Positions 24,766-63,432 of a DNA stretch of 64,000 nucleotides are shown here, piece after piece; within the stretch, counting starts at the first letter, position 1; each line of letters starts with the position of its first letter. A program made the position numbers and the translations under genes. Below the pieces are notes generated by a model, which was not told the origin of the DNA, made no database searches, and saw only the letters and a list, made by a program, of their open reading frames with translations. Source of the stretch: Patescibacteria group bacterium (GTDB taxonomy: Bacteria; Bacteroidota; Ignavibacteria; Kapaibacteriales; Kapaibacteriaceae); NCBI GenBank assembly GCA_044376225.1, contig JBILLF010000002.1:24192-88191 (forward strand), given 5' to 3'.

Positions 24766-24983
24766 GCAAACCTCAAAGAAACTGTGATGAAGTATGTGTT
24801 TTTGGTTTCTCATTCTGTGCTCGACGTAGCTCTGTTCGGATCAATAACAACACGGAAGGTAATTCGTTACATGCGTACGAATACACTCCTCCCGAAAGAG
24901 CATCGGACAATATTCTGATTTTAGGTGAATTAGTCAAACAATTTTTGTCCCCAAATGGCATTCGGTAGAAATTTGGGTGGTCA

Positions 24984-25610: not shown

Positions 25611-29278
<3,668 letters not shown>

Positions 29279-29279
<1 letters not shown>

Positions 29280-47378: not shown

Positions 47379-47644
47379 CAGGCTCGACCAAAGCCTTTGT
47401 AGAGGTCGAACTTGGCGCTGTAGAGAACGATGTTCAGATTCTCATCGCGCAGGGTCCCACCCGACGGCGACAGATAGAACGTCCCCGTGCGGCCGGTCGG
47501 CATCTTCGATAGAACCCCCGATTCATCGACAAAGAACGTTACGATCTTGTAGCCGAGATGCTCCGGCGCCGACGCAGCCTGTGCAAGAAGGTTCTCAGGT
47601 GTGTACAGACGCAGATCTGGTTCCATGGGACGGCAAGTTCTCAT
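47378..47644 (-). CDS. small hypothetical protein upstream of iscS
   Basis: About 85 aa with no recognisable motif. I chose this start so that the gene does not run into the divergent secA start. Very uncertain. Confidence 0.25.
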   Translation of the reverse strand: MRTCRPMEPDLRLYTPENLLAQAASAPEHLGYKIVTFFVDESGVLSKMPTGRTGTFYLSPSGGTLRDENLNIVLYSAKFDLYKGFGRA

Positions 47645-47771
47645 TGTGGTGAATTCCCTACGTCGGGCCTCAAAAATAACCAGTAATTTTGCCCCTTCGC
47701 CGAAAGATGTCGGCACGAGGGACCTGCCTCGTTCGTCATTGGCCCATCCTGTCACCAATAGCTGTCACGTC

Positions 47772-50700
47772 ATGCTCAAATTTCTGCAGTCGCTCATCGG
47801 CGGTTCCAAACACGAAAAGGACGTCAAAGAGATTCGACCGATCGTTGACCAGATCAATGGCCACTTCGCCGGACTCTCCTCCCTTTCAGATCAGGACCTT
47901 CGTGCACGTACCGACGAGTTCCGTGATCGCGTCCGCGAGGCCGTTGCAGATCTCAAAGCTGAGGCCGAAGAAATTCGCGAGCGGCTGCGGACTGACATGA
48001 CGATGGACCATGCGGAGCGCTCCGATTTGTATGCTCGACTGAATAGCAACGAGCGCGAACAGTTCGAGGCAACGCAACAGGCCCTAAACGACATCCTCCC
48101 AGAAGCCTTCGCCGTTGTCAAGGAAGCCTGTCGACGCCTGGTCGGACATCGATATATGGTCGTCGGCAATGAGCAGACCTGGGACATGGTCCCCTACGAC
48201 GTGCAGCTCATCGGTGGTATCGTGCTTCACCAGGGTAAGATCGCCGAAATGGGCACGGGCGAAGGTAAGACGCTGGTTTCTACACTGCCCCTGTACCTCA
48301 ATGCCCTAGCCGGACGTGGTGTACACCTGGTCACAGTCAACGACTACCTTGCACGACGTGACCGCGAGTGGATGCGCCCGATCTTCGATTTCTTGGGTGT
48401 GAGCACTGGCTGTATCCAGTCGGACATGCGTCCAGACGATCGCAAAGTGCAGTATGGATCTGACATCACATGGGGAACGAACAATGAGTTCGGCTTTGAC
48501 TATCTGCGCGACAACATGGTCACCGACCCGCAGGATATGGTCCAGCGCGGACACTGGTTTGCCATCGTCGATGAGGTCGATTCCGTTCTGATTGATGAGG
48601 CCCGTACGCCCCTTATCATCTCAGGTCCGGTAACGGCCGGTAGCACAGAGACAGCCTTCGTCGAAATGAAGCCCCGTGTGCAGCGCCTTGTCGATGCACA
48701 GGCACGCTTCGTCAACAGCATCGTGGCCGAAGCCGAGAAGCTCCTCGCCACCGGCTACAAGGAAGACCGAATCAACGCTGGCGTGAATCTTCTGCGAGCC
48801 AACCGCGGCATGCCAAAGCAGAGCAAGCTTCTGAAGATGCTTCAGGAGCCGGATGCGATGAAACTCCTTCGCGACACGGAACTCGACTACCTGCGCGACC
48901 AGGGTCAGCGTATGAACATCATCGATCAGGAGCTCTATTTCACAGTTGATGAAAAGAATCACCAGATCGACATTTCGGATAAGGGGCGAGAACTGCTGAC
49001 CTCGTCGCAGGAAGACCCGGAAATGTTCGTGATCCCCGACATTGCGGCGCAGATGAGCGCCCTTGAAGGTGATGCATCAATTTCTGCTGAGGATAAGACG
49101 CTGCGCCGTGACGATATGATGCGCGTGTTTTCGGATCGTTCAGATCGCATCCACATCGTCAACCAGCTGCTACGTGCCTACACGCTCTACGTCCGTGACG
49201 ACGAATACGTTGTCCAAGACGGAAAGATCAAGATCGTTGATGAGTTCACGGGTCGTATCCTGGAAGGTCGTCGCTATTCAGATGGACTTCACCAGGCCAT
49301 CGAGGCCAAAGAAGGCGTTTTTGTCGAACAGGATACCCAGACCTTTGCCACCGTTACCCTGCAGAACTACTTCCGTCTGTATCACAAGCTAGCTGGCATG
49401 ACCGGTACGGCTGAGACCGAGGCAGCTGAGTTCTGGCAGATCTATACTCTCGACGTTGTGGCAATCCCGACGAACCGTCCCGTGCAGCGCAAGGACCTGG
49501 ATGATTTTATCTACCGCACGAAGCGCGAGAAGTACAACGCCGTGGTCGAGGCCGTGCAGCTTGAGCTTGCGGCCGGACGCGCAGTACTGGTAGGAACCAC
49601 GAGCGTTGAGGTTTCTGAGCTGCTGAGCAAGATGCTCAAGCGGGCCAATGTGCCCCACAACGTGCTCAACGCCAAGCAGCACCAACGTGAGGCTGAGATC
49701 GTGGCCAACGCCGGAAAGAAGGGCGCTGTGATGATCGCAACGAACATGGCCGGTCGTGGTACGGATATCAAGCTCGACGGTGACGTAAAGGAGAAAGGTG
49801 GCCTTGCCATCATTGGTACGGAACGTCACGAAGCCCGCCGCATTGACCGTCAGCTTCGGGGTCGAGCCGGCCGTCAGGGTGACCCGGGATCGTCGCAGTT
49901 CTTCATCTCACTCGAAGACGATCTGATGCGCCTCTTCGGCGGCGAGCGTATCGCTGCCGCCATGCAGCGCATGAAGGTGCCCGAAGGCGAACCGATCCAG
50001 AGCGGCATCGTGACCAAGGCCGTGGAAAATGCCCAGAAGAAGGTTGAAGGCAACAACTTTGGCATCCGCAAGCGCCTGCTCGAATACGACAACGTGATGA
50101 ACCAGCAGCGCGAAGTCATTTACGACCGCCGACGTCACGCTCTGATGGGTGAGCGCCTTCGCAGTGAGATCCTTGAGTATGCGTCCGAGCTATGCGGACA
50201 GTGGTATGACGAACACCACCCGTCGGGTGATCATGATGCCTTCATGAATACGATTCGAGCCAAGATGCTGTGCGAGCCAAGCGTATCGGCACAAAGCTTC
50301 ACGTCGGACAGCAAGGAGCAGGTCATGGAGCGTGTGATGGAAGCCGTCGTTGAGTTCTATGACCGTAAAGAGTCCATGCTCGGACACGACTTCATGTCGC
50401 AGCTTGAGCGTGTGGCCGCCCTGCGCGCTGTGGACGACGAGTGGCGCGAGCACCTGCGCGTGATGGACGACCTCAAGGAGGGGATCTATCTGCGGGCCTA
50501 TGGTCAGAAGGACCCGATCCTGGAGTACAAGCAGGAAGCCTACCGCGTCTTCCTTGAGCTGCTCACGCAGATCAACGAGGCCACAGTATCATTTGCATTC
50601 AAGTACTTCCCGCAATTTGCTGAGCGCGCGGAGCGTCAAGCCCCAACACGTCCTGCGGCAACGGTCGTACCGTCCGTTACGACCTCCACCCCGACGCGTC

Positions 50701-50897
50701 AGCTTCGATTTTCGCATCCGAGCGCCACATCAACCTCGACGCTGGGTGGAGACCCCAATGCTGAGTCGTCACAGTCGGCAAGCACCATCAGGAACGCAGG
50801 ACGTAAGGTTGGACGCAACGAACCGTGTCCGTGCGGATCAGGCATGAAGTTCAAAGCCTGTCACGGGGCTAGCGGAGCAACCACCTACCCGGCCTGA
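47772..50897 (+). CDS. secA: preprotein translocase ATPase SecA
   Basis: MLKFLQSLIGGSKHEKDVKEI N-terminus, Walker A (GTGEGKTLVSTLP), DEVDSVLIDEARTPLIISG, and a C-terminal zinc finger (CPCGSGMKFKACHG). Confidence 0.95.
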   Translation: MLKFLQSLIGGSKHEKDVKEIRPIVDQINGHFAGLSSLSDQDLRARTDEFRDRVREAVADLKAEAEEIRERLRTDMTMDHAERSDLYARLNSNEREQFEATQQALNDILPEAFAVVKEACRRLVGHRYMVVGNEQTWDMVPYDVQLIGGIVLHQGKIAEMGTGEGKTLVSTLPLYLNALAGRGVHLVTVNDYLARRDREWMRPIFDFLGVSTGCIQSDMRPDDRKVQYGSDITWGTNNEFGFDYLRDNMVTDPQDMVQRGHWFAIVDEVDSVLIDEARTPLIISGPVTAGSTETAFVEMKPRVQRLVDAQARFVNSIVAEAEKLLATGYKEDRINAGVNLLRANRGMPKQSKLLKMLQEPDAMKLLRDTELDYLRDQGQRMNIIDQELYFTVDEKNHQIDISDKGRELLTSSQEDPEMFVIPDIAAQMSALEGDASISAEDKTLRRDDMMRVFSDRSDRIHIVNQLLRAYTLYVRDDEYVVQDGKIKIVDEFTGRILEGRRYSDGLHQAIEAKEGVFVEQDTQTFATVTLQNYFRLYHKLAGMTGTAETEAAEFWQIYTLDVVAIPTNRPVQRKDLDDFIYRTKREKYNAVVEAVQLELAAGRAVLVGTTSVEVSELLSKMLKRANVPHNVLNAKQHQREAEIVANAGKKGAVMIATNMAGRGTDIKLDGDVKEKGGLAIIGTERHEARRIDRQLRGRAGRQGDPGSSQFFISLEDDLMRLFGGERIAAAMQRMKVPEGEPIQSGIVTKAVENAQKKVEGNNFGIRKRLLEYDNVMNQQREVIYDRRRHALMGERLRSEILEYASELCGQWYDEHHPSGDHDAFMNTIRAKMLCEPSVSAQSFTSDSKEQVMERVMEAVVEFYDRKESMLGHDFMSQLERVAALRAVDDEWREHLRVMDDLKEGIYLRAYGQKDPILEYKQEAYRVFLELLTQINEATVSFAFKYFPQFAERAERQAPTRPAATVVPSVTTSTPTRQLRFSHPSATSTSTLGGDPNAESSQSASTIRNAGRKVGRNEPCPCGSGMKFKACHGASGATTYPA

Positions 50898-50904
50898 TGC
50901 AACG

Positions 50905-52065
50905 TTAGTTGACGCTGTCCCCTTCGCGAAGATTCTCGGAGGGGTGCTGCACAATGTGGTCTCCGACATCGAGTCCAGACGCGACAACCGTCATTAGCGC
51001 GCTCCGTGCACCGAGTGTCACAGAGCGCCGGCGAATGATGCCGGCTTCAACCACCAGCACGTGCCACTGATCAGCATCTCGAAGAAGCGCACCGAGTGGG
51101 ATACAAAGCGCATGTTCTGATCTCTCCGTAATGATGGCCGCTTCGACGCGATATCCGTCACCGAGCCCAGGTGGACGGGCCGCGATATCGGCGATAACAT
51201 TGACGCGCTGTTCCTCGATTCCGAGCGAGCTTACCCGTGTGCGGGCCGACGGTTCAACGCGTCGTACCGTTGCCCGGACGATGGAGTTCCCTCCCCATCC
51301 ATCGAGGTTGACGCTCATGCCTGGACGGATCTTGACGGCATCGATACTGAGTACATCGATCACCACTTCAGCCTGAGACGTGTCGCCTAGTTCTACGATC
51401 GGTGTACCGGCCAGGACGGTGCGTTCGGACTGTTCGTGACACCTTAGCACAACGCCTGATGTTGGTGCACGCACAGAAACACGCTGACCGGGTCGGCCGG
51501 CTAGAATGGCCAGGACGGCTTTGGATTCAAAGCCTATGGCCCGCTCACGCTCGCGCAGGGCATCGGCCTCACGTTGCAGCTGCTCATAGGCATCGCGGGC
51601 ATTCTCGGCCTGCTCGCGCGTAACGGCTCCGGCCAGCTCAAGCCGACTCAGTCGCTCGGTTCTGCGTCTAGCCTGTTCTATCAGGGGGCTCATTGCAGCC
51701 AGGCGCTGATGGATCTCAGCCGATCCGGCACTGATGGAGCCGAAACGAGCCCGGGCTTCGGAACGCTGACGCTCGTCAAGCTCGGGTGGAATGATGGTGC
51801 CGATGATCTGCCCGGCAATGACGCTATCACCGGGTTCGACGCTGAGTCGTTCGAGGACGCCGGTAGCCGGCATGGCCACAACGAACCGTTCGCGAGCGCG
51901 CACAATACCGTCGGCCTCGACCGTGGTCTCAAGATCCTGCTGTCGAACCACTACCTGCTCAACACGAATTGGTCGTGGCAGCAACGCTACGATGATCGCG
52001 GCAATGACGACAACGATCGTGATGATCCAGCCAAGATATCGGGGACGTCGTAGCTTCATCATCAC
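50905..52065 (-). CDS. HlyD/MacA-family periplasmic adaptor (membrane fusion protein)
   Basis: N-terminal TM anchor, long coiled-coil (ENARDAYEQLQREADALRERE) and a beta-barrel/lipoyl-like C-terminal region. It starts at the stop of the ABC permease. Confidence 0.7.
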   Translation of the reverse strand: MMMKLRRPRYLGWIITIVVVIAAIIVALLPRPIRVEQVVVRQQDLETTVEADGIVRARERFVVAMPATGVLERLSVEPGDSVIAGQIIGTIIPPELDERQRSEARARFGSISAGSAEIHQRLAAMSPLIEQARRRTERLSRLELAGAVTREQAENARDAYEQLQREADALRERERAIGFESKAVLAILAGRPGQRVSVRAPTSGVVLRCHEQSERTVLAGTPIVELGDTSQAEVVIDVLSIDAVKIRPGMSVNLDGWGGNSIVRATVRRVEPSARTRVSSLGIEEQRVNVIADIAARPPGLGDGYRVEAAIITERSEHALCIPLGALLRDADQWHVLVVEAGIIRRRSVTLGARSALMTVVASGLDVGDHIVQHPSENLREGDSVN

Positions 52066-54425
52066 TCACGGGATTTGAGAACGGCGATCATGTCAAGTCG
52101 GGCTATCCGACGACGGATAAACCCGCCGGTTACGAGCGCAACGGCGAGGATCAGTGCGGCACTGATGCCGAGGTTGCGCAGACTGATGGCAAAGGGAAAT
52201 CGAAACAGATCTGTAGCAATCAGCGAAGGCATCCACATCGACCACATGATGCCCCCTAGCATGCCGATCGGCAAAGCAACGAGCGTGATCACGAATTGTT
52301 CGCCCAATAGGATCACAGTAACGTCACGATTCGAGAAGCCAAGCACGCGCAGGCTTGCAAGTTCATTGCCCCGCTCGCTAAGTGCAATGCGTGCGTTGTT
52401 AAACACCACGCCGAAGGCGATGAGCGAGGCAAAGAACACAATGTAGAAATTTGAAATGTCCATGAATTGCAGATAGCTCTCATCGAAGCTACGCATGGCC
52501 CGCTCGCGCATCACCACACCTGACATTGACGGGAGCCTCTTGACGGCGCGGTAAAACTCCCCCATCAGTGCCGGATCGATCTGCAGGTATGCTCCACTGA
52601 TGCTCCCTTGCTCGCGCAGCATTGCACGCAGCACACCTGGTGAGACATAGACCTGCACGCCCATCATGTCGTCGATCAGTGACGTGACAGCCACCGTGAA
52701 TGATCGACGTTCTTCGTCGATCTGACGCAGCCCGATTGTGTCACCAATGCCAAACCCCATCATTTTGGCCATGTACGCCGAACAGGCCACACCGTAGGTT
52801 GGGACCGGCTGAGGCCACCCCTTCATCGACGTCACGCGATGGAGCTCCGGGTACTCAACACCGGCCACTATGGCGGTGCGCTTGGTGGTGGAGCCGACGA
52901 TCACATCCACAGGGATCGCACGAAAGGGTTCGACAGACATTACTCCAGGTAAAGCCGCCAGATCATGCACTGCCCGGTGCGAGCGCGGCGTCATGAATGT
53001 TACCATGGCATCCTCACGAGCAACGCGATGGAACTGTACCGTCAGAATTGTCTCAAACATTTCCATGAAGTAGCGTCCAAGAACAAGCAACGACATTGCC
53101 AGGGCGATCGCCAGTAGGCTCACCACCGCACGCACCGGCCGACGCAGCACGTTGCGAACGATCATCGACGTTAGGGGGCTGAAACGGCGTGTAAGACCGC
53201 TGCGTTCGAGCAGCCCGCCGCGATACGACCGCGGTGCTTCGGGTCGCATGGCCTCTGCCGGTGGCAACCGCACGATGGCTCGAACCGCCGCTATCGCGCC
53301 AAGTGAAGCCGCCAGAAGACTCAGCAGAATAGCGCCAAGGATCACGAGAACAGGTACGTCAAACTCCAGCACCGGTAGCCGGTAGAAGTCTAGGTACATC
53401 CTGACAAGCCTGACACCGATGAAAATGCCACCGGCCAGGCCCAGCACGGTGCCACCGGCTACGGCCACCACGGCAAAGCCCACGTAGTGTAGCGAGATAC
53501 GTCCATTGCCGTACCCAAATGCCTTGAGAATGGCGATCGTCGAACGCTGCGTAGTAACGAAACGTAGCAGCGAGATATTCAGCAGAAAGATCGCCACACC
53601 GAGAAAGATCGCCGGAACGATAAGGGCCGTGAGCGACAGCTGTCGGATCTCATCACTGAGGAACTTGTGCGACTGCTGATCGTCTCGCGCAATGGCACCG
53701 GTACTTCCATACGGACGAAGCAGCACATCAAGCCGGTCAATGATTCCTGTCTTTGACGCGCCCGGTACCAGGTCGAATGAAGCGCTGTTCCAGGCACCCG
53801 ACAAGTCATAGAGCGTACCAAGAGCCCCCTGCTCCATCCACATCACCGCAAATCGCTTGTTGTCGATCATCATCGAGCCCGGAACAAGCTCCAACACCCA
53901 TTCCGGAGAGAGTGCCGTGGCAACGATGCGAAGGGGCTTCCAGCGCCCATTGATCACGGCATTGACCGTGTCACCCTCATGAAATCCATTGGCCAGTGCA
54001 AAGGCGTAAGAGACGATCACTTCGTCATCAGTGTGGGGCGTGAGCCAGCGACCGGAGCGCAGGCTCAGCCGATTGACAGGGGGCTGACCTGATCCAGGGA
54101 TTCCGGTGATGATGCCCGTTGCCGGCTCTGCCAGACCAGGGATATCGATCACCACATTGGCCACAACACGAAGGTCGACGTTCGTTACGCCGCTGATCTG
54201 AGCCAGACGCGAGCGCAGCTCAAGTGGCGCCCGGCGCACCTGCGCCCAGACGTCACCAAAGTTCGTTTCGTCGTAGTAGGTGCGCTGCGACAGCACCAGC
54301 GAAGCATGCGTGCTTTGGAAGGCAACGTAATTGGCAATACCGGCGGCGATCACCAGAATGATGGCGATCATCTGGCCGCGCATGTGACGGACCTCGCGCA
54401 GGAGCTTGATGGTCAAAATCGACAC
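52062..54425 (-). CDS. ABC transporter permease with duplicated FtsX domains (YbbP/MacB-like, about 790-820 aa)
   Basis: Two FtsX-type 4-TM modules separated by large periplasmic domains. Start uncertain (GTG about 54425 or ATG 54383). It is 3' of the ATPase gene. Confidence 0.7.
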   Translation of the reverse strand: MSILTIKLLREVRHMRGQMIAIILVIAAGIANYVAFQSTHASLVLSQRTYYDETNFGDVWAQVRRAPLELRSRLAQISGVTNVDLRVVANVVIDIPGLAEPATGIITGIPGSGQPPVNRLSLRSGRWLTPHTDDEVIVSYAFALANGFHEGDTVNAVINGRWKPLRIVATALSPEWVLELVPGSMMIDNKRFAVMWMEQGALGTLYDLSGAWNSASFDLVPGASKTGIIDRLDVLLRPYGSTGAIARDDQQSHKFLSDEIRQLSLTALIVPAIFLGVAIFLLNISLLRFVTTQRSTIAILKAFGYGNGRISLHYVGFAVVAVAGGTVLGLAGGIFIGVRLVRMYLDFYRLPVLEFDVPVLVILGAILLSLLAASLGAIAAVRAIVRLPPAEAMRPEAPRSYRGGLLERSGLTRRFSPLTSMIVRNVLRRPVRAVVSLLAIALAMSLLVLGRYFMEMFETILTVQFHRVAREDAMVTFMTPRSHRAVHDLAALPGVMSVEPFRAIPVDVIVGSTTKRTAIVAGVEYPELHRVTSMKGWPQPVPTYGVACSAYMAKMMGFGIGDTIGLRQIDEERRSFTVAVTSLIDDMMGVQVYVSPGVLRAMLREQGSISGAYLQIDPALMGEFYRAVKRLPSMSGVVMRERAMRSFDESYLQFMDISNFYIVFFASLIAFGVVFNNARIALSERGNELASLRVLGFSNRDVTVILLGEQFVITLVALPIGMLGGIMWSMWMPSLIATDLFRFPFAISLRNLGISAALILAVALVTGGFIRRRIARLDMIAVLKSRE

Positions 54426-54429
54426 AGCA

Positions 54430-55155
54430 TCACCATGAGAGTTCACGGGGCTGCTTGCGCTGCGTCGGGGAATACTCCTGCACGATCGTACCACTGCGCA
54501 TACGCAGCACCCGGTCGGCCATGTCCGCAATACTAGCGTTGTGTGTGATCAGCGCTACCGTCGCGTCGAGTTCACGATGTACCAGGTCGATCACCTCCAG
54601 CACGATGATGCCTGTCTCGAAGTCCAATGCGCCCGTGGGCTCGTCACAGAGAAGAACGTCTGGACGTTTGGCAATGGCACGGGCGATGGCAACCCGCTGC
54701 TGCTCGCCCCCTGACATCTGAGACGGGAAGTGATGCATGCGGTCGGCCAAGCCCACGAGGTCAAGTGCCGTTCGTGCATCCATCGGCTCTTCAACGAGAT
54801 CGGTCACCAGCTGCACGTTCTCAAGTGCCGTCAGACTTGGGATGATGTTGTAGAACTGGAACACGAAGCCCACCGAGTGACGTCGGAACCTGGTCAGCGC
54901 TGCCTCATCAGCATGAGTCAGATCCGTCTCCCGATACCGAACGCTGCCGGATGTGGGCACATCGAGCCCACCGAGGATGTTCAGCAAGGTGGACTTACCA
55001 CTTCCCGAAGCACCGAGGATCACCAGGAGCTCGGACTCATGGATTGTCAGCGACACATCGCTAAGGGCTACAACCTCTAGCTCGCCCATCGAATAGGATT
55101 TCGTGACGTGGCTGACGTCAAAAAGGACAGGGCGGCCGGAGTGATCCTGATGCAT
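54430..55155 (-). CDS. ABC transporter ATP-binding protein (MacB/LolD/YbbA-like)
   Basis: Walker [10 protein letters not shown], signature [14 protein letters not shown] and Walker [12 protein letters not shown]. Confidence 0.9.
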
Positions 55156-55182: not shown

Positions 55183-55962
55183 CTACATCGAGTGAATCTG
55201 CACGTCACCATGATGGTCGATGGCCACATAGGTCGATGGCTTATCGGTCCAGCATCCGGAGTTGACGTACGTGACATCATCGATTTGCTTGATCCCGGGC
55301 ATGTGCGTGTGACCGCAATGAACCACCTGAGCCTGATGCCTGCGGCGTCCATGTCCAGCTGCATCGTGTGCAATCTTGTCGCTCAGGCGCAGCCACTTCT
55401 TGCTGGTGCGCTTTACCCAGCGGCTCACGCGGTGGTGCGGATCGATGCGCTGCAGCAGCAGATACAGCCATGAGGCGATGGCCGTGATGGTCACATGTTT
55501 GGTGATCCATCGGTCAAACTGGTGTCCATGAATGGCCAGATGACGCTTGCCCGCAACCGTAAAGACGATCTCTTCATGCACCGGTACTCCCAGAAGGTGC
55601 GTCAGGATCTCGGCCACACCACCGTCATGATTGCCCACCACCCAGACCACGTCTACGCCCCGACGTGGATTTGACAGACGTCGCAACAGCGACAGAACCT
55701 TCCAGTCATCCTTGGTAAGACGCCTGAAGTTGAGATCGTCAAAGACATCGCCGTTGAGGATCAGGCGTTTGTAGATGTGCGTCTTGAGCATCATCACCAG
55801 CGCCTTTGAGCGGGCAACATCCGAACCCAGGTGCAGGTCGGAGATGATGATGGTGTCCACGTCAAGAGGCACGGCAAGATGAAGGTCAATCCGCTCGCGC
55901 TCACTGACCTCGACGTCTACGATGATATCATCATCGATGTCATAGTCGGCGACGGAACGCAT
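55183..55962 (-). CDS. calcineurin-like metallophosphoesterase (LpxH-like UDP-2,3-diacylglucosamine diphosphatase family)
   Basis: IISDLHLG, GDVFD and GNHD are metallophosphoesterase motifs I-III. Start uncertain (55962 or 55998). Confidence 0.6.
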   Translation of the reverse strand: MRSVADYDIDDDIIVDVEVSERERIDLHLAVPLDVDTIIISDLHLGSDVARSKALVMMLKTHIYKRLILNGDVFDDLNFRRLTKDDWKVLSLLRRLSNPRRGVDVVWVVGNHDGGVAEILTHLLGVPVHEEIVFTVAGKRHLAIHGHQFDRWITKHVTITAIASWLYLLLQRIDPHHRVSRWVKRTSKKWLRLSDKIAHDAAGHGRRRHQAQVVHCGHTHMPGIKQIDDVTYVNSGCWTDKPSTYVAIDHHGDVQIHSM

Positions 55963-56704
55963 GGATGTGCTGTCGGAAATATCCCGTGGGGAAGTCATCA
56001 TGGAGTCCGTATCGAGTAGGCTTTTCCGTTTCTGGTAAATAGGCAGTAGCAAACAGCCAGTCCCAGATGGCAAGCTTGGTCGAGAAGTTGCGATTATGCG
56101 AACGGGGATCGTCGGCATGGTGCCAGCGGTGCATCTCCGGACCGTTGATCACGCGTTGCAGACGTCCCGTGCGCACGTCAATATTCGAATGGATGTACAT
56201 GCCCCAAATGGCATCAATGGCCCCCTTTATCACGGCTACCTCCGGTGAGGCCAGCAGCACGATCGGGAGGAACTCTACCGTCTGGTTGATGAGGATCTCA
56301 AGACTGTGCGAGCGTGATCCGCTAAGCCAGTCCACATCGGTGGTTGAATGATGAGCCTCGTGAATTCGCCACAGCAGTGCATTCGAGTGTTGCCAGCGAT
56401 GGAACCAGTAGATGTAAAAGTCGTGCACCAGAAGAAACACCACCATCTGCGCCGCCAGTGGCTGCGAGCGCAGAAACACAAGGCGGCTCAGGCCGCTCTG
56501 CTGGTCAATCCAGCCGATGAGGGCAAAGATCACCAGACCCAGCACGTAGCTCTGGGCGATGGCGTACAGGCCCAGATCGGTCATGAACCCACTCCTGAAA
56601 AGGGGCTGACCCGACGTGTAGGGAAACAGCCGTTCAAGGACGACCAGCAGGCCCCCTGCTAGGATCACCATCGTGGTGCAGACTATTGCCAGCGACAGCT
56701 CCAT
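55940..56704 (-). CDS. fatty acid hydroxylase superfamily integral-membrane di-iron enzyme (sterol-desaturase-like)
   Basis: Multiple TM segments plus three histidine boxes (HRWQH, HEAHH, HRWHH). Confidence 0.7.
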   Translation of the reverse strand: MELSLAIVCTTMVILAGGLLVVLERLFPYTSGQPLFRSGFMTDLGLYAIAQSYVLGLVIFALIGWIDQQSGLSRLVFLRSQPLAAQMVVFLLVHDFYIYWFHRWQHSNALLWRIHEAHHSTTDVDWLSGSRSHSLEILINQTVEFLPIVLLASPEVAVIKGAIDAIWGMYIHSNIDVRTGRLQRVINGPEMHRWHHADDPRSHNRNFSTKLAIWDWLFATAYLPETEKPTRYGLHDDFPTGYFRQHIHAFRRRL

Positions 56705-56707
56705 ACC

Positions 56708-57607
56708 TTAGGCTTCTCCTCGGACCGATGACGAAACACGACGAAGCTTCGACCGCACGCCCAGCTCACTGTCATACAGGCGCTTGACACCGTCGCCCAG
56801 TGAGCGCTCGATCTCGCGGATATCGCGAATCATGCGCTCGAGTCCGGCAATCTCTACGCTGGCGGCTTGGTCAGTTCCCCACATAGCCCGGTCGAGAGTG
56901 ATATGTCGCTCAACGAACCGCGCACCGAGGGCAACGGCGGCATACGTCGTAGCAAGCCCCACCTCGTGCCCGCTATAGCCGATGATGCGGTTCGGGTAGC
57001 GAGCCTGTAGGGTATTGATCATCCGGAGGTTGAGTTCATCCGAGGCACAGGGATAGGCCGAAGTTGCGTGGGCGATCAGCAGGTTCGCATCGGTCAGTGA
57101 TTCGACAGCCTGATCGATTTCCTCCGTCGTGGACATGCCGGTGGAGATCATCAGCGGCTTGCCTGTTGATGCCATGACACGAAGTAGTCCAAGGTCAGTT
57201 AGTGATGCCGATGCTGCCTTGTAAAAAGGCACATCAAAGTTTGCCTCCATAAAGGCCAGCGCCTCCTCATCCCAGCATGACACAGTCCAGTCGATACCAA
57301 GATCCCGGCACAGTGCGTCAATAAGGCGATAGTCCTCTTCGTCGAATTCCACCTTGTAGCGATAGTCGATGTAGGTCATGCGTCCCCACGGCGTGTCACG
57401 CTCGATCATCCATTGATCACGCGGCACACACAGCTCCGGGGTACGCTTCTGAAACTTCACACAAGACGCGCCGACGCGTGCCGCGCCGCGAATCATCTCA
57501 CGGGCGATATCAAGAGATCCGTTATGGTTGATGCCAATCTCGGCGATGACATAGACTGGCTGATCTGCGCCAATGGCTGGCTTGGTCGTCGATGGTTGAA
57601 TGCTCAT
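56708..57607 (-). CDS. NeuB-family PEP-condensing synthase (sialic/ulosonic acid synthase-like), short form lacking a C-terminal SAF domain
   Basis: VYVIAEIGINHNGSLDIAREMIRGAARVGASCVKFQ is the NeuB TIM-barrel N-terminal signature. At 299 aa it lacks the C-terminal antifreeze-like domain. Confidence 0.65.
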   Translation of the reverse strand: MSIQPSTTKPAIGADQPVYVIAEIGINHNGSLDIAREMIRGAARVGASCVKFQKRTPELCVPRDQWMIERDTPWGRMTYIDYRYKVEFDEEDYRLIDALCRDLGIDWTVSCWDEEALAFMEANFDVPFYKAASASLTDLGLLRVMASTGKPLMISTGMSTTEEIDQAVESLTDANLLIAHATSAYPCASDELNLRMINTLQARYPNRIIGYSGHEVGLATTYAAVALGARFVERHITLDRAMWGTDQAASVEIAGLERMIRDIREIERSLGDGVKRLYDSELGVRSKLRRVSSSVRGEA

Positions 57608-57684: not shown

Positions 57685-58494
57685 TCACCAGGCCGTCCAG
57701 CCGCCGTCGACAAGAAGATTGTGTCCGGTCATGTAGGCCGAGGCATCGCTGGCAAGAAACACGAGCGCACCGCGATAGTCCGTTGGGTCAGCCATGCGTC
57801 CAAGCGGCGTGCGCTCGGAATAGAGTTTCTGGAAATGCTCGTTCTGATTGTTGGCCACACCGCCCGGTGAGAGCGTATTGGCACGTACACCTGACCCAGC
57901 CCAGTATGTAGCCAGAAACTTGGTCAGCATCACTACCGCCCCCTTCGAGGCTGGATAGGCAGCACTCTTGTAGAACGACTGTGAGCCATCGGGACGCTGG
58001 TAGAGCCGCTGATCTGGGGCCACAACGCCGTAGGTCGAGGCGATGTTGATGATCGAGCCTCTTCTGGTCTCGGCCATATGCGTGCCGATGATCTGGCTTG
58101 TCAGGAACACTCCGGTGACGTTGACATCAAGCACCTTGCGAAACAGCGTCAGCGGATAGCTCTCAAAGGCCGACGGTGCGCCCCCGGAAAGGGGTGCTTC
58201 GACCATGTCATTCATGGCGGCATTATTGACCAGAATATCAATGTGTCCATGTTCGCGCAGGACCATCTCGCGTAGATCGACAATTCCCTCGGCATCGGTA
58301 ACATCGAGTGCAACACCCATGTGGTGAGCACCCAGTTCCTGCGCCACGTCGCGAGCCGCATGACCATCGAGGTCACAGGCCACAACCGTTGCACCGGCAG
58401 CGGCGAGAGCCACGCAGTGCTGACGTCCCAATAGACCCGCTGCACCAGTGACCACCGCTACGCGGTCTTCAAGCGAAAAGATGTTTTGCATCAC
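57685..58494 (-). CDS. short-chain dehydrogenase/reductase (SDR)
   Basis: VVTGAAGLLG (TGxxxGxG), NNAA, and catalytic YxxxK (YPASK). Confidence 0.8.
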   Translation of the reverse strand: MMQNIFSLEDRVAVVTGAAGLLGRQHCVALAAAGATVVACDLDGHAARDVAQELGAHHMGVALDVTDAEGIVDLREMVLREHGHIDILVNNAAMNDMVEAPLSGGAPSAFESYPLTLFRKVLDVNVTGVFLTSQIIGTHMAETRRGSIINIASTYGVVAPDQRLYQRPDGSQSFYKSAAYPASKGAVVMLTKFLATYWAGSGVRANTLSPGGVANNQNEHFQKLYSERTPLGRMADPTDYRGALVFLASDASAYMTGHNLLVDGGWTAW

Positions 58495-59822
58495 TTGTGC
58501 TCCATCGCAACACGCGGCTTAGTGTTGAAGGCACCCGTCTTGCGGAATACCGGCTCAACGCATCGGCCGCGCAGTGCCAATGGCAGTGTTCCCATGCGGA
58601 TGTGTTCATGTAGCATCGGCAATACGTCGGCATAGACATCAAGCGTGAACTCGATGTCTGCAAGCGTGTGTGCCGCACTCAGCGTGTGAAAGCCATTCCA
58701 TAGAATTCCGTACCGGAGCAGTTCCTGCTGCACAAACGAACGCATCATCAGCGGGTCCGCAGACGCGTCCGAAAAGGCCATCATTGTGCGGGCCCCAAGC
58801 CCCTTGACCGTGGCGTAACTCATGTCGTTGGAGGCAAGGATCAAGCGAATACCCTCGCGGAGTTCATCACCCAATAGCTCCATTCGCTGCAGAACCTCAC
58901 CATCGAGCAGGCGGTGTAACGTGGCCTTGGCAGCGGCAAGTGATAGTGCTTCGCCACCGAAGGTCGTAAAGAAGAATACATCCTTCTCGAGCAGACGCAT
59001 GATCTCGGCCTTGCCCGTCAGCACTGATAGCGGCATGCCATTGGCAACGGCCTTTGAGAAGCAGGCAAGGTCAGCCTGAACGCCAAATCGCATCTGCGCA
59101 CCGCCCGGAGAGATCCGAAAGCCAGTCCACATTTCGTCGAAGATCAAGACGATACCACGCTGATTGCAGAGTTCGCGCAGCTCCTGAAGGAAGTCCTCCT
59201 TCGGTTCGTCAAAGACCATCGGCTCAAGGATGATTGCCGCTGTATCAGAATCGAGCGCATCATAGACGCTCTGCATGTCGTTATAGCTGAAGGTGTAGGT
59301 CAGGTCTCGCACAGCCTGTGGGATTCCCATGGCGCGGTCCGTGGTGGCGATGTACCAGTCGTGCCAGCCATGATACCCGCAGCACAGCACCGTAGAACGT
59401 CCTGTATAGGCACGAGCCAATCGCACCGCAGCCGATGTGACATCGCATCCTGTCTTGGAAAAGCGCACATGCTCGGCATTGGGAACAATACCATGGATAA
59501 GCTCGGCAACTTCTACTTCCAGTGGGTGCATCAGCGAAAACGTTATGCCGTCATGAAGCTGCTGCTCGATGGCCCGATTGACGCCGGCATCGGCATAGCC
59601 AAGAATGAGCGGACCGATCGCCATGGCGTAATCGAGGTAACGGTTATCGTCAACATCCCAGAGGTAAGCCCCCTTTCCGCGTTGGGCAAAGACAGGCGCT
59701 ACGCCGCGCACGTGCTGACCAGGTCCTTTGGCGAGGGTCTGCGTCTGTGCCGGGATGAGTCGCTCGGCTCGCTTAAGAAGCTCTTGGGATCGCTGGATCG
59801 GTGGATATGTTGGCTCACGCAT
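58491..59822 (-). CDS. class III PLP aminotransferase (glutamate-1-semialdehyde aminomutase-like)
   Basis: GSA-AT-like fold with the PLP lysine in the FSKAVANGMP context. The length (about 440 aa) fits. It overlaps the flanking genes by 4-8 nt. Confidence 0.7.
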   Translation of the reverse strand: MREPTYPPIQRSQELLKRAERLIPAQTQTLAKGPGQHVRGVAPVFAQRGKGAYLWDVDDNRYLDYAMAIGPLILGYADAGVNRAIEQQLHDGITFSLMHPLEVEVAELIHGIVPNAEHVRFSKTGCDVTSAAVRLARAYTGRSTVLCCGYHGWHDWYIATTDRAMGIPQAVRDLTYTFSYNDMQSVYDALDSDTAAIILEPMVFDEPKEDFLQELRELCNQRGIVLIFDEMWTGFRISPGGAQMRFGVQADLACFSKAVANGMPLSVLTGKAEIMRLLEKDVFFFTTFGGEALSLAAAKATLHRLLDGEVLQRMELLGDELREGIRLILASNDMSYATVKGLGARTMMAFSDASADPLMMRSFVQQELLRYGILWNGFHTLSAAHTLADIEFTLDVYADVLPMLHEHIRMGTLPLALRGRCVEPVFRKTGAFNTKPRVAMEHK

Positions 59823-60783
59823 GGGTAACCTCGCTTTGTGGTGAAAGGGGCTGGCTGACGCCATGAACGATATCGGCAAAGCGCTCGCGGATGCGATGAG
59901 CCAGTGCCGGGGCGCTCATGCGCTCATTCTCAAGCACGTCGTTAAGACGTCCAGGCCGGAACCACGTCGGAAAGCCAATAGTCAGCACCGGCGCAGCAAT
60001 ACGATTCGCCATGAGCGTCTCGGCAACGATGCTGGCAAGGCCCCCTGTGAGAAAATGATCTTCGACGGTAACAACGAGCTCGCTTGTTCGGGCGGCGTCG
60101 AGGATTGCTTCAACGTCAACGGGCTTGAGCGTGCGCATATTCACTACGCGCACATGCATGTCTTCCCTACGGAGCTCGTCGGCCGCTTCGATACACAGCC
60201 TTGTCATGAAGCCATACGTAAGGATCGTTACGTTCGGGCGGTGCAGCGAAGCACCACGAACAGCCACTGCCCTACCGGGCTCGAATGGCACTCTGTCGAT
60301 CGGCAGCTCCGGAGCATTGAGATAGCGGACGTACCAGGGACGACGGGATTCGAGCAGCACGCGCATACCATCGACAAACTCCTGTTCGTCGCAGGGACAG
60401 AACACACCTACGTTCGGCAGGCCTCGCATGATCGATACGTCCTCAATAGCCTGGTGAGTGGGACCATTACCGTCACTGAGAATGCCTGCAACCATGCCCA
60501 CCATGATCACCGGGGCGTTGGCAATAGCTACATCATCGCGGATGAATTCAAAGGCTCTCATCGTGATGAAGGCCGCCAGCGCATGCGTCACCACGACCCG
60601 ACCGCGCACGGCCATTCCGGCTGCCATGCCGATCATTGTTTGCTCAGCAATACCGACGTCTATAAATCGGTCGCCCAGCATCGGCGGTACAGTTCGCATA
60701 TGTCCACGGTTTTCGGCCGTGATCACCACGAGGCGCTCATCGCGCGATGCTGTATCTAGGAGCAGAGTTTCGTAAGCGTTCAT
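59815..60783 (-). CDS. transketolase, C-terminal (pyrimidine-binding) subunit of a split transketolase
   Basis: GIAEQTMIGMAAGMA...GPTHQ are motifs of the transketolase Pyr and C-terminal domains. It is a separate ORF immediately after the N-terminal subunit. Confidence 0.75.
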   Translation of the reverse strand: MNAYETLLLDTASRDERLVVITAENRGHMRTVPPMLGDRFIDVGIAEQTMIGMAAGMAVRGRVVVTHALAAFITMRAFEFIRDDVAIANAPVIMVGMVAGILSDGNGPTHQAIEDVSIMRGLPNVGVFCPCDEQEFVDGMRVLLESRRPWYVRYLNAPELPIDRVPFEPGRAVAVRGASLHRPNVTILTYGFMTRLCIEAADELRREDMHVRVVNMRTLKPVDVEAILDAARTSELVVTVEDHFLTGGLASIVAETLMANRIAAPVLTIGFPTWFRPGRLNDVLENERMSAPALAHRIRERFADIVHGVSQPLSPQSEVTHA

Positions 60784-61637
60784 CGTACGATCAAGGTTTC
60801 TGAGGTGAGTGTTGCACGCGCATGGCCATTGAGCTCTTCGATGAGAGCCTGTGTCTCTTCGGCACTGAAGTTGCAGAACCAGCGGTCGGCTCTCTCTTCG
60901 ATACTTGGCAGCCCCTTACCGCGACGTGTATCGGCAATGACCACGGTGGGACTTCCCGAGTTCAGTTGCAACGAGCTGAAGCACGCGTCAAGCGAATTCA
61001 TATCATGGCCATTGGCGTAAACAGCATTCCAGCCGAAGGCCCGAAACTTCTCGGGAAGGGGCTCAAGCGGCACCAGCTCTTCGGTGCGCACATTTGCCTG
61101 GAAGTGATTACGATCTATCACGGCGATGAGATTGTCCAGACTCAGCGCCGAGGCTACCAGACAGGCCTCCCAGACGCTTCCCTCGTTGAGTTCACCATCG
61201 CCCATAATGACCACAACGCGTGTCGATAGGCCCTTCATCCGAGCATCAAGGGCCATTCCCATACCGACGCTGAGAAGATGACCCAGCGAGCCGGAGTGAA
61301 ACTCCACCCCCGAAACATTGCGGTTTGGATGCCAATAGAGATCGTCGTTCACCGAAAGGTGGTGCTTAAGCCGTTCTTTGCTGATGAAGCCTCGCTCGGC
61401 CAGCACACCATAGAGAGCCGGCACGTCGTGCCCCTTGGAGAGTAGCAGAATGTCGCGGTCTTCGGCGTGCACTGTCAGCGGCGAGATGTTCAGGAAGCGC
61501 CAGTACAGGTATACGAGCAGATCCGCGCACGACAGAGACGCTCCAATGAAGCAGCCGCCGTCGGTGGACATCCGCACGATGTGCTCGCGCACACGAAGGG
61601 CGGCGCTTTGGAGTTCTTCGACCTCGGCAGACGTCAT
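60780..61637 (-). CDS. transketolase, N-terminal (thiamine-diphosphate-binding) subunit
   Basis: SKGHDVPALYGVL...GSLGHLLSVGMGMAL...VIMGDGELNEGSVWEA is the ThDP-binding motif. Confidence 0.75.
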   Translation of the reverse strand: MTSAEVEELQSAALRVREHIVRMSTDGGCFIGASLSCADLLVYLYWRFLNISPLTVHAEDRDILLLSKGHDVPALYGVLAERGFISKERLKHHLSVNDDLYWHPNRNVSGVEFHSGSLGHLLSVGMGMALDARMKGLSTRVVVIMGDGELNEGSVWEACLVASALSLDNLIAVIDRNHFQANVRTEELVPLEPLPEKFRAFGWNAVYANGHDMNSLDACFSSLQLNSGSPTVVIADTRRGKGLPSIEERADRWFCNFSAEETQALIEELNGHARATLTSETLIVR

Positions 61638-62425
61638 GAAGCGATCCTCGGTGGTGATTGCAAATAGCTTTGATACCAGCTCTGTCCACGCAACTGCTGA
61701 TTGATGAGGTCGATCTCGGGATGCGCGTCAAGAAACGCCAGAACGTCCTCGCACCGAAAGCGAGGGTTCGCCCAGTAAAGCGCGTCATAAACGGCCCGGA
61801 TCAGAACGTAATCTTCGGGATGATCGATGGTCCAGCGGTGGCGTGCCTCGAGCAACTGACCATCTGGACGCTCCACATTCCGCATGGTGATGTATGGGTT
61901 ATTCTCCCACATCCATGGAGTCGTATGCTCGCGTTCATGCGGTCTACTGGCCGTTGCCCAGGCCCGGTGAAGAGCAAGCATCGTCATCACTTCGACGTCA
62001 TTCCCATCAGGCCATGTGCCGGGGTGCAGATTACTGGCGTAGTCCACCCACGGATACTCCAGCAGGAAGGACTCAATGACCATGTCGATCACGGCCGGGT
62101 CGATGAGTGGACAGTCAGTCGGGATCTTGACAACCACATCGGCATCAACCATCTGAGCTGCCCAGAAATGCCGGTCAAGCAGATCCGTAGGATGCCCGCG
62201 ATAAACACGGTATCCGGCAATGTGGCATAGGTCGGCGATCTCATCGTCTTGAGCAAGCGTGGTGGTGGCCACGATCACATGCTTGGCGTAGCGAGCCATT
62301 GTGACGCGCTCAAGAAAACGAAGAAGAAGGGGCTCTCCGGCAAGTGGCAGCAGGACTTTGCCGGAGAGACGGGTTGACCCCGTGCGAGCCTGGCAGATAA
62401 TGGCCACCTTGGGTTGATGATTCAC
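61634..62425 (-). CDS. CMP-sugar-type cytidylyltransferase (CTP_transf_3; acylneuraminate/Kdo cytidylyltransferase or SpsF/PseF-like)
   Basis: KVAIICQARTGSTRLSGKVLLPLAGEPLL is the N-terminal nucleotide-binding signature of the SpsF/NeuA/KdsB family. Confidence 0.65.
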   Translation of the reverse strand: MNHQPKVAIICQARTGSTRLSGKVLLPLAGEPLLLRFLERVTMARYAKHVIVATTTLAQDDEIADLCHIAGYRVYRGHPTDLLDRHFWAAQMVDADVVVKIPTDCPLIDPAVIDMVIESFLLEYPWVDYASNLHPGTWPDGNDVEVMTMLALHRAWATASRPHEREHTTPWMWENNPYITMRNVERPDGQLLEARHRWTIDHPEDYVLIRAVYDALYWANPRFRCEDVLAFLDAHPEIDLINQQLRGQSWYQSYLQSPPRIAS

Positions 62426-63432
62426 ACGGCCTCCCGCAGATGATAGGAACGGCGCTCTGGAAGCATCAGACCGCGCTCATGGAGAACTTCTGTGCAGACC
62501 TCGGCGATACTCGCTGCCGAACGTCCGCCATTCTGAATCGGACACATACGGCGCAGCTCCTCCATCGGGAAGTCGCTATAGACTTCCTTGCCTAGGGCAA
62601 TGCCCACGTACACACATGAAGAGAACTTGGTAATGAGTGTCTGGCAATGTGCGATCATCGGATTGATGTCGCGGCCGTGATATACCAGCGCATTAGGAGC
62701 CCAGCGGTCGATCTCGCGTCGTGCACGGTCAACGACCTCGTTCGGATGAAGCTTGAAGATCAGCTGACGTCCATCGGCAATGCGCAGGGCATTGAGTATC
62801 GTTTGACGACGGTCCTCGAGCTTGAATGTCTCGCGCGCGTCGCTGGTGGCAACGAGCACGAAGTCGCTGTGATCGAACGGGACTTCGCGATAGCGCTCAC
62901 AGTTATCGAAGTTTGGGATGCCCGTAACACGCAGTTTGCGACCATCAGCCCCTTTCCGTCGGAAGTGGTCCGCGTAGCCTTCGGATGCCACGCACATGTA
63001 TCGATAGGCATTTGAGAGTCCGAAGGTCGACGTCGAGGCAAGGTATCGTGGCAGACCCAGCTTCATCACCGCACGGTACATGAAGTTCTCGGGATCGGTC
63101 ATGCCCTCCTGCACCAGCACGATCGGACGGTTGCGGATGTTCTGCTGCAACATCAGATCGCTGCAGGTCACCACGAGGTCATAATCGAGCTCGCTGCCAA
63201 ACTCATCGATGCGGCACAGATTAGCGCGCAGCACCTGGCGTGCGCGTTCACGGTGGCGGTTGCCCACAATGGTCCACTCTAGCAGACCGGAGCGTGCAGC
63301 CGCCTCCAAAAGTCCGTCGGCATAGTGCGGGGCAAAGCGGCACTCGTGTTCCGACAGATGACGGGCGATCTCGACCATCATCGTGGTTTGATTTACCGAG
63401 CCGCAGATAAAGAGAATGTTACACCGTTGCAT
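62422..63432 (-). CDS. Capsule_synth (KpsS/KpsC/LpsZ)-like protein, a putative CMP-ulosonic-acid glycosyltransferase; first gene of the operon
   Basis: About 336 aa with a Rossmann-like N-terminus (ILFICGS). The segment LIFKLHPNEV resembles the conserved HP motif of KpsS/KpsC beta-Kdo transferases. Assignment by motif recollection only. Confidence 0.35.
   Translation of the reverse strand: MQRCNILFICGSVNQTTMMVEIARHLSEHECRFAPHYADGLLEAAARSGLLEWTIVGNRHRERARQVLRANLCRIDEFGSELDYDLVVTCSDLMLQQNIRNRPIVLVQEGMTDPENFMYRAVMKLGLPRYLASTSTFGLSNAYRYMCVASEGYADHFRRKGADGRKLRVTGIPNFDNCERYREVPFDHSDFVLVATSDARETFKLEDRRQTILNALRIADGRQLIFKLHPNEVVDRARREIDRWAPNALVYHGRDINPMIAHCQTLITKFSSCVYVGIALGKEVYSDFPMEELRRMCPIQNGGRSAASIAEVCTEVLHERGLMLPERRSYHLREAV

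Follow-up and report, generated by a model that had tools for sequence, protein, structure and literature searches.

An LpxH-like metallophosphoesterase and a membrane di-iron oxygenase linked to NeuB-type sugar gene blocks

The interval 55183-56704 of a 64,000-nucleotide stretch of contig JBILLF010000002.1 (assembly GCA_044376225.1; the whole stretch is referred to as the window) contains two minus-strand genes, located where the original prediction had placed them. One, designated FAH, encodes an integral-membrane di-iron oxygenase of the fatty-acid hydroxylase / sterol desaturase superfamily (PF04116; 55940..56704, minus strand). The other, designated MPE, encodes a soluble two-metal phosphoesterase with LpxH-like architecture (55183..55962, minus strand), composed of a catalytic core and a helical insertion of about 64 residues. 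Translation of MPE likely starts at the ATG at 55962, giving a protein of 259 residues, and the gene overlaps the FAH stop codon by 23 nt; this start was placed by means of gene calls on identical contigs and an alignment of homologues. A longer open reading frame (ORF) at 55183-56118 was considered as the phosphoesterase gene and rejected as an artefact of ORF extension, since gene calls and homologues put the start at 55962, with 55998 as the outer limit.

Twelve minus-strand genes with intergenic distances of -23 to +77 nt form a co-directional array, in which FAH and MPE close the biosynthetic part. As had been predicted, the two are flanked by sugar genes on one side and by exporter genes on the other. 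A scan for sigma-70 promoters and terminators gave results at chance level. The sugar part of the array (the block) begins with a GT-B fold enzyme, GTx (62422..63432), followed by a cytidylyltransferase of the CMP-sugar type (61634..62425; Pfam CTP_transf_3, E 1.9e-19) that is matched by KdsB-type NCBIfam models, all below their cut-offs. Next come the N-terminal (60780..61637; Pfam Transketolase_N, E 6.9e-28) and C-terminal (59815..60783; Pfam Transket_pyr and Transketolase_C) subunits of a transketolase, which is optional, as its genes are absent from about 11 related blocks. A class-III (omega) aminotransferase resembling glutamate-1-semialdehyde aminomutase (58491..59822, start codon taken from a 443-residue gene call; Pfam Aminotran_3, E 4.5e-50) scores 364 bits with NF004856, against a cut-off of 486, and precedes a short-chain dehydrogenase/reductase (SDR; 57685..58494; Pfam adh_short_C2, E 3.5e-45). 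The last gene before FAH encodes a NeuB-like phosphoenolpyruvate (PEP)-condensing synthase (56708..57607; Pfam NeuB, E 1.7e-70); its match to TIGR03569 (228 bits, cut-off 400) covers the profile only up to position 278 of 329, and this NeuB homologue therefore has no C-terminal SAF domain.

GTx has no Pfam match above cut-off (Epimerase_2, E 0.021), and a profile search against the PDB gave the TagF-like Cps3D (E 5.5e-4). For its AlphaFold2 model (predicted local distance difference test score, pLDDT, 87), Foldseek ranks UDP-sugar 2-epimerases highest and TagF-like enzymes next. GTx may therefore act as a hydrolase or epimerase of the NeuC/PseG type and not as a transferase; the model supports either an NDP-sugar 2-epimerase/hydrolase-like or a TagF-like assignment. 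The block is probably one of ulosonic-acid biosynthesis, and all of its parts come from known superfamilies in a combination that is so far undescribed. In the literature, neither a described pathway with a split transketolase, a membrane hydroxylase and an LpxH-like esterase was found, nor any work on this gene combination or on the distribution of LpxH in the phyla concerned.

FAH is a protein of 254 residues with four hydrophobic segments (Kyte-Doolittle), and a search with PF04116 bore out the predicted superfamily membership (E 5.6e-30, 104.9 bits against a cut-off of 31). All three of the predicted histidine boxes are present, namely HRWQH (56387..56401, minus strand, residues 102-106), HEAHH (56348..56362, minus strand, residues 115-119) and HRWHH (56117..56131, minus strand, residues 192-196), and they are invariant across 25 homologues (in the first box, H102 and H106). 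The sole NCBIfam match is OlsE (NF052566; 120.9 bits, cut-off 475), and sequence searches of the PDB with FAH gave no match. Two types of related block, defined below by the presence of a HAD phosphatase or of MPE, were compared for what follows NeuB, counting only loci with at least 2 kb of sequence past this gene. FAH was found there in 29 of 32 MPE-type and 16 of 25 HAD-type blocks, i.e. directly 3' of NeuB in 45 of the 57 judgeable blocks. As a membrane oxygenase, FAH belongs to the core of the block in several lineages. A carotenoid hydroxylase (CrtZ) or sterol-type enzyme that stands here by chance would belong to the same Pfam superfamily, but this constant position in both block types speaks against it, as does the OlsE model being the only NCBIfam match. 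Moreover, the flanks showed no carotenoid or sterol genes. Carotenoid genes in particular are lacking among the 12 genes of the array and around related loci as far as their flanks are annotated, and the carotenoid setting that the original prediction had named as refuting it was not encountered there. Such an origin of FAH is considered extremely improbable.

Some further observations concern the position of FAH and its relatives (related loci carry L-numbers). A homologue with 60% identity is found near SecA at L087:10001-10783, with no sugar block or MPE within 10 kb. In nine HAD-type blocks, a membrane protein of 104-106 residues of the SMR family follows NeuB, the position held by FAH elsewhere (e.g. 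L089:17298-17618, L092:17607-17927 and L093:17074-17388, plus six loci); its best match is SugE, below cut-off, and locus L134 encodes both this protein and FAH. An OlsB-like N-acyltransferase and a PlsC/OlsA-like acyltransferase are encoded divergently upstream of one FAH-bearing block (L173:2088-3646, minus strand), and a weak OlsB-like match is found about 1 kb past the block in L110/L111. A general link of the block to OlsB/OlsA-like aminolipid genes was rejected, as the pair stands beside the L173 block only.

Two samples of related loci were used to follow the phosphoesterase. The first was seeded with MPE and comprises 80 species-level genome loci with MPE relatives, which were screened with the window proteins; adjacency was scored by tblastn and hidden Markov model (HMM) thresholds in loci of at most 20 kb. 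The second is independent of MPE, and was collected by homologue look-ups seeded with FAH or the GT-B enzyme and by a metagenome scan with a GT-B profile. In most blocks of this second sample, a HAD protein of 166-173 residues is encoded between SDR and NeuB. It passes the cut-off of the KdsC family model TIGR01670 (142 bits against 107), and falls just short of that of the Kdn-9-phosphate phosphatase model NF058599 (158 bits against 180). A census of 71 blocks in which both the aminotransferase and the NeuB gene are complete gave 27 blocks with the HAD protein and no MPE, 35 blocks with an adjacent LpxH-like MPE and no HAD protein, nine blocks with neither, and not a single block with both. 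In the GT-B-seeded loci alone, the corresponding numbers are 27 HAD, five MPE and eight neither. An HMM search of six-frame translations detected the HAD protein in all 27 HAD-type loci and in none of the 35 MPE-type loci, and the same kind of search found no HAD homologue in the 64-kb window. The possibility of a phosphatase domain hidden in the cytidylyltransferase, SDR or NeuB proteins was rejected, since the lengths of these proteins are equal in both block types. In neighbour-joining trees of the aminotransferase and NeuB (midpoint root, including metagenome contigs of unknown taxonomy), MPE-type blocks occur in at least two clades, one of them nested among HAD-type blocks and with a different orientation of MPE. 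Judged from these trees, the MPE-type blocks have separate origins, at least two.

MPE itself has no hydrophobic segment, in line with a soluble protein, and its Pfam matches are generic (Metallophos and Metallophos_2). With the NCBIfam LpxH models TIGR01854 and NF003743 no match was obtained even at E <= 1, while in the same run the Escherichia coli LpxH scored 389 and 364 bits, respectively. A profile search of the PDB found LpxH at an E-value of about 0.06 only, whereas a direct profile alignment with E. coli LpxH (hhalign) gave a probability of 84% (E 7e-6) over 196 columns, running through the insertion domain. The AlphaFold model of MPE (pLDDT 82) places helices of this insertion at residues 147-210, and its 25 best PDB matches are all LpxH structures (E 3.7e-11 to 2e-8, TM-score about 0.6 over the full length). 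In these Foldseek comparisons 234-252 columns were aligned with LpxH chains of 237-247 residues, and phosphoesterases without the cap rank next. The metal site is intact: D43, H45, D73, N112, H146, H219 and H221 of MPE (residue numbers follow alignment A1) pair with D8, H10, D41, N79, H114, H195 and H197 of LpxH in the hhalign alignment, and none of the seven varies among 29 homologues. The insertion domain has conserved residues of its own, mostly basic or polar: Q172, D175, R182, K185, R186, S188 and K189.

The original statement that the phosphoesterase belongs to the LpxH family thus stands at the level of the fold, but not at that of the sequence models, including TIGR01854, nor in the active-site motif, which is GNHD in MPE (with His113 invariant in the family) and GNRD in LpxH. 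In LpxH, the arginine of this motif, Arg80, binds the phosphate of lipid X (PMC5016852). LpxG of Chlamydia, however, carries GNHD and yet performs the LpxH reaction (PMC4807358). A second metallophosphoesterase is encoded on an Ignavibacteria contig only 7 kb from the MPE homologue (L050:17418-18200, plus strand), and is far more LpxH-like: it scores 102.5 bits with NF003743 (E 2e-29) and 86.5 bits with TIGR01854. Its sequence identity reaches 25% with E. coli LpxH (E 4e-21) and only about 28% with the MPE encoded nearby. Because this protein also carries GNHD, as does the Chlamydia enzyme, the difference between GNHD and GNRD alone is not decisive outside Proteobacteria. Taken together, the missing LpxH model match, the GNHD motif and the better candidate in L050 therefore indicate, as far as sequence and predicted structure go, that the MPE family is a distant LpxH paralogue with LpxH architecture and not the best LpxH candidate of its lineage.

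These results bear directly on the view that MPE is the real UDP-2,3-diacylglucosamine hydrolase of the organism, acting in lipid A synthesis, with the block making a Kdo-like sugar of the inner core. The LpxH-like fold, the conservation of the family in diderm lineages and the precedent of a GNHD enzyme in Chlamydia agree with this view, and PGAP and JGI annotate MPE homologues as 'UDP-2,3-diacylglucosamine diphosphatase'. Apart from the model searches, the histidine in place of Arg80 and the L050 protein, it is made less likely by the absence of any lpx gene from the annotated or protein-searched flanks of the examined loci, and by homologues in four MAGs (metagenome-assembled genomes) labelled Paceibacterota, a group without lipid A. 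We regard it as very unlikely, and the widespread automatic name LpxH for the MPE family as probably wrong. The four MAGs (L057, L062, L065 and L068, labelled Paceibacterota/Parcubacteria) are of low GC content (37-40%) and encode their MPE homologues, with 52-54% identity, between FtsK and ValRS; if the labels are true, they place the MPE family in bacteria that have no lipid A. MAG taxon labels proved unreliable elsewhere in the sample: loci with Kapabacteria-like synteny and a SecA of 70-87% identity are labelled Chitinophaga pinensis, Hyphomicrobiales or Patescibacteria (L006, L012, L014, L023 and others). The window itself comes from a MAG of the Kapabacteria/Ignavibacteria type.

The predicted tie of both genes to the sugar block is supported by their operon-like spacing and by an adjacency that is kept across deep lineages. 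In the MPE-seeded sample, the 21 closest relatives and several more distant ones carry the complete sugar block together with FAH and MPE; this combination persists in about 25 species-level genomes, at identities as low as about 50%, and also on independent metagenome contigs. Three arrangements of MPE relative to the block were observed, i.e. downstream on the same strand, downstream on the opposite strand, and divergently upstream, the last in L050 and L070. In L032 and L038, MPE stands beside NeuB and FAH is absent.

In HAD-less blocks, no hydrolase other than MPE is encoded within the block or next to it, and replacement of the phosphatase is therefore taken as the best single explanation for MPE. 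We propose, tentatively and as a suggestion that falls somewhat short of probable, that MPE is a non-orthologous replacement of the HAD phosphatase of the block and supplies the phosphoester hydrolysis of the pathway. As background, Kdn-9-phosphate and Neu5Ac-9-phosphate synthases make phosphorylated ulosonic acids, and the Kdo8N route of Shewanella proceeds by oxidation of an alcohol and subsequent transamination of Kdo. From its gene content, the core of the array would be a NeuB-type pathway for a CMP-activated ulosonic (sialic-acid- or Kdo-like) sugar acid, probably one with an amino group. Such comparisons are also the basis on which we infer what MPE acts on, in which order the steps occur and what the product is. 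The KdsC-type phosphatase inside the block points to a NeuB homologue that would make a phosphorylated ulosonic acid. Most likely, MPE would then remove the terminal phosphate of this phospho-ulosonate before CMP activation; in HAD-bearing lineages, the KdsC/Kdn-9-phosphate-type HAD protein of the same block would do this job. Dephosphorylation would expose the terminal carbon, which SDR and the omega-aminotransferase could convert to an amine, by analogy with Kdo8N, and the cytidylyltransferase would subsequently activate the sugar acid with CMP. FAH, as a membrane di-iron oxygenase, would modify a membrane-embedded acceptor or product.

Several findings weigh against this proposal. The closest known fold to MPE is that of a lipid pyrophosphatase, and we know of no LpxH-fold enzyme that acts as a sugar-phosphate monoesterase. 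Six blocks have neither phosphatase although they can be judged (L086, L091, L098, L104, L105 and L173), the other three of the nine having too little flanking sequence, and the exclusivity of HAD and MPE may rest on few evolutionary events, the blocks being phylogenetically non-independent. In addition, a Metallophos protein of about 308 residues without resemblance to LpxH stands beside six HAD-type blocks, in two arrangements (L116:8909-9835, L126:8837-9781 and L140:9-338 on the minus strand; L162:8184-9221, L117:18953-19876 and L125:9776-10564 on the plus strand), and on this account a second phosphoesterase step that is not covered by HAD may exist. Finally, MPE occurs without the block in many loci. 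Among these are the Paceibacterota-labelled contigs described above, MAGs labelled Terriglobia that carry the family at about 50% identity outside the block, and a block-less slot with the gene order AIM24-ThyX-CCP_MauG-MPE-SecA and no exporter (L027-29, L035 and L037).

This slot invites a different explanation, namely that MPE is a housekeeping gene resident between CCP_MauG and SecA, beside which the block and the exporter merely became inserted. In the window, SecA (47601-50897, plus strand) converges on the last gene of the array. Other members of the family are found among IF3-L20-PheS-LolD-PlsC and among RecA-FtsK-ValRS, the MPE tree follows the lineages, and several blocks of the FAH- and GTx-seeded sample have no adjacent MPE, all of which agrees with a resident gene. 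An insertion beside a resident gene accounts poorly, however, for an adjacency in at least three arrangements and at least two clades, for the overlap of 23 nt between the FAH and MPE reading frames, and for the absence of this MPE from the vicinity of every HAD-type block. Two MAG species each hold two copies of MPE: a copy between CCP_MauG and SecA without a block (L028 in CAYXKK01 and L035 in CAMCXP01) and a second copy linked to a block (L019 and L025, respectively). The block-linked copy is 64.5% identical to the window MPE and the block-less copy 57.6%, and the two copies within one genome are 54-57% identical; contamination of the bins is possible. Species with a resident MPE thus appear to possess a separate, block-linked one. 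Overall, we consider the housekeeping explanation unlikely.

Downstream of MPE, the array continues with the genes of a tripartite exporter, and these figure in the lipid-directed model of the original prediction. They encode an ABC ATPase of the MacB/LolD/DevA type (54430..55155; Pfam ABC_tran, E 1.1e-35), which is matched by the LolD, DevA and YbbA models below their cut-offs only, a double-FtsX permease of about 780 residues (52062..54407; Pfam FtsX, MacB/YbbP-like), and an HlyD-type membrane-fusion (periplasmic adaptor) protein (50905..52065; Pfam HlyD_D23 and HlyD_3), the last gene of the array. The start codon of the permease is uncertain, with gene calls ranging from 773 to 787 residues, and one of its homologues additionally has a MacB_PCD domain. 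In the lipid-directed model, MPE would act in an LpxH-like manner on a nucleotide- or pyrophosphate-linked acylated sugar or lipid, FAH would hydroxylate the acyl or head group, and the MacB-type pump would export the resulting glycolipid. The full-length fold match with LpxH, helical insertion included, and the hhalign probability are in keeping with this model. So are the mostly membrane-lipid substrates of the FAH superfamily with OlsE as the best NCBIfam match, the MacB/DevA-like exporter itself, and the separate metallophosphoesterase beside six HAD-type blocks, which suggests a step distinct from that of HAD. Genes for GT21, PAP2 and LPG_synthase_TM proteins adjoin some versions of the block as well. 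These lipid-type enzymes were observed by HAD-type blocks at L134:8053-9809, L117:8968-9480 and 14956-16056, L135:17309-18169 and L089:5836-7047; they were rejected as general neighbours of the block, occurring in few HAD-type lineages only and in none of the MPE-type loci nor in the window.

On the other hand, neither the array nor the 10 kb around it in MPE-type loci contains an acyltransferase or lipid-synthesis gene, MPE matches no LpxH model, and the conserved residues of its insertion domain are mostly basic or polar. The GT-B enzyme may not be a transferase, its fold being nearer to that of 2-epimerases. The exporter accompanies only part of the MPE-type blocks, judged to be Kapabacteria by MAG labels and synteny; about half of the MPE-type blocks and every HAD-type block lack it. 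HAD and MPE are strictly mutually exclusive. The lipid-directed model is possible in our view, if rather doubtful, and the step from LpxH to an acylated, lipid A-like substrate could not be upheld: MPE is a distant paralogue for which a better LpxH candidate exists in L050, and in other lineages the block carries HAD, the two never occurring together. A glycolipid product is possible, and a role in lipid A unlikely. The ideas can also be combined into an as yet undescribed pathway of Kapabacteria/Ignavibacteria, Nitrospirota-labelled MAGs and other contigs, in which an amino-ulosonic acid made by the SAF-less NeuB would be placed on a membrane lipid modified by FAH. An LpxH-fold enzyme would have been recruited to it either as a sugar-phosphate phosphatase or as a lipid-linked pyrophosphatase, and Kapabacteria would export the glycolipid, independently of lipid A, by a MacB-type pump. 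Taken in its entirety, this scheme is speculative and not likely to be correct. Elsewhere in the window, very large ORFs (883-1587 residues) are located on the minus strand at 6224-10489, 10499-13150, 20050-24813 and 25611-29279.

Two features of the block are unusual, namely a FA_hydroxylase-family enzyme as a regular member and an LpxH fold in place of a KdsC-type phosphatase. The latter offers a testable case of enzyme replacement, as an LpxH-like fold appears to take over from an unrelated HAD protein. A regular membrane di-iron hydroxylase in a NeuB-type block hints that common bacteria of freshwater and sediments carry a new glycoconjugate or glycolipid on their surface. If the MPE family serves a sugar-acid pathway, the many public entries named 'UDP-2,3-diacylglucosamine diphosphatase LpxH' are wrong, and lipid A synthesis as reconstructed from those names for Ignavibacteria, Kapabacteria and Terriglobia would be misleading.

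Compared with known systems, MPE shares with LpxH (PDB 5K8K, 5B49 and 6PH9) the two-metal calcineurin-like core and the helical insertion between the HG and GHTH motifs, and differs from it by an identity of about 20%, by the conserved residues of the insertion and by the missing lipid A context. A parallel is offered by LpxH2, the LpxH paralogue of Pseudomonas aeruginosa, which has an insertion of similar size with different conserved residues and presumably another substrate (PMC5016852); this resemblance is conceptual, based on the published description and not on sequence (PMC5016852). The KdsC and Kdn-9-phosphate phosphatases (HAD; TIGR01670 and NF058599) hold the hydrolase role in the blocks of other lineages, to the exclusion of MPE. 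They use an Asp nucleophile, whereas MPE, a Metallophos protein, has a two-metal centre; the folds are unrelated, and the two would be equivalent in function only.

For FAH, the nearest described enzyme is OlsE, the ornithine-lipid hydroxylase of Rhizobium tropici, which belongs to the same histidine-box superfamily; FAH differs in its score (121 against a cut-off of 475) and in the absence of OlsB/OlsA genes from the window. The exporter resembles tripartite systems of the MacB, DevCBA and YbbAP type in that an ABC ATPase, a double-FtsX permease and an HlyD adaptor are encoded together, and is unlike them in scoring below the cut-offs of the LolD, DevA, YbbA and MacB equivalogs and in lacking a gene for an outer-membrane channel in the array. 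The block as a whole is unlike the NeuA/NeuB/NeuC nonulosonic-acid pathways and the Kdo8N route in its SAF-less NeuB, which stays below equivalog cut-offs, and in its class III rather than DegT-type aminotransferase. With these pathways it shares a PEP-condensing NeuB homologue, a CTP_transf_3 enzyme and a GT-B enzyme resembling epimerases or hydrolases, and, as there, its dehydrogenase and aminotransferase could jointly make an amino sugar acid.

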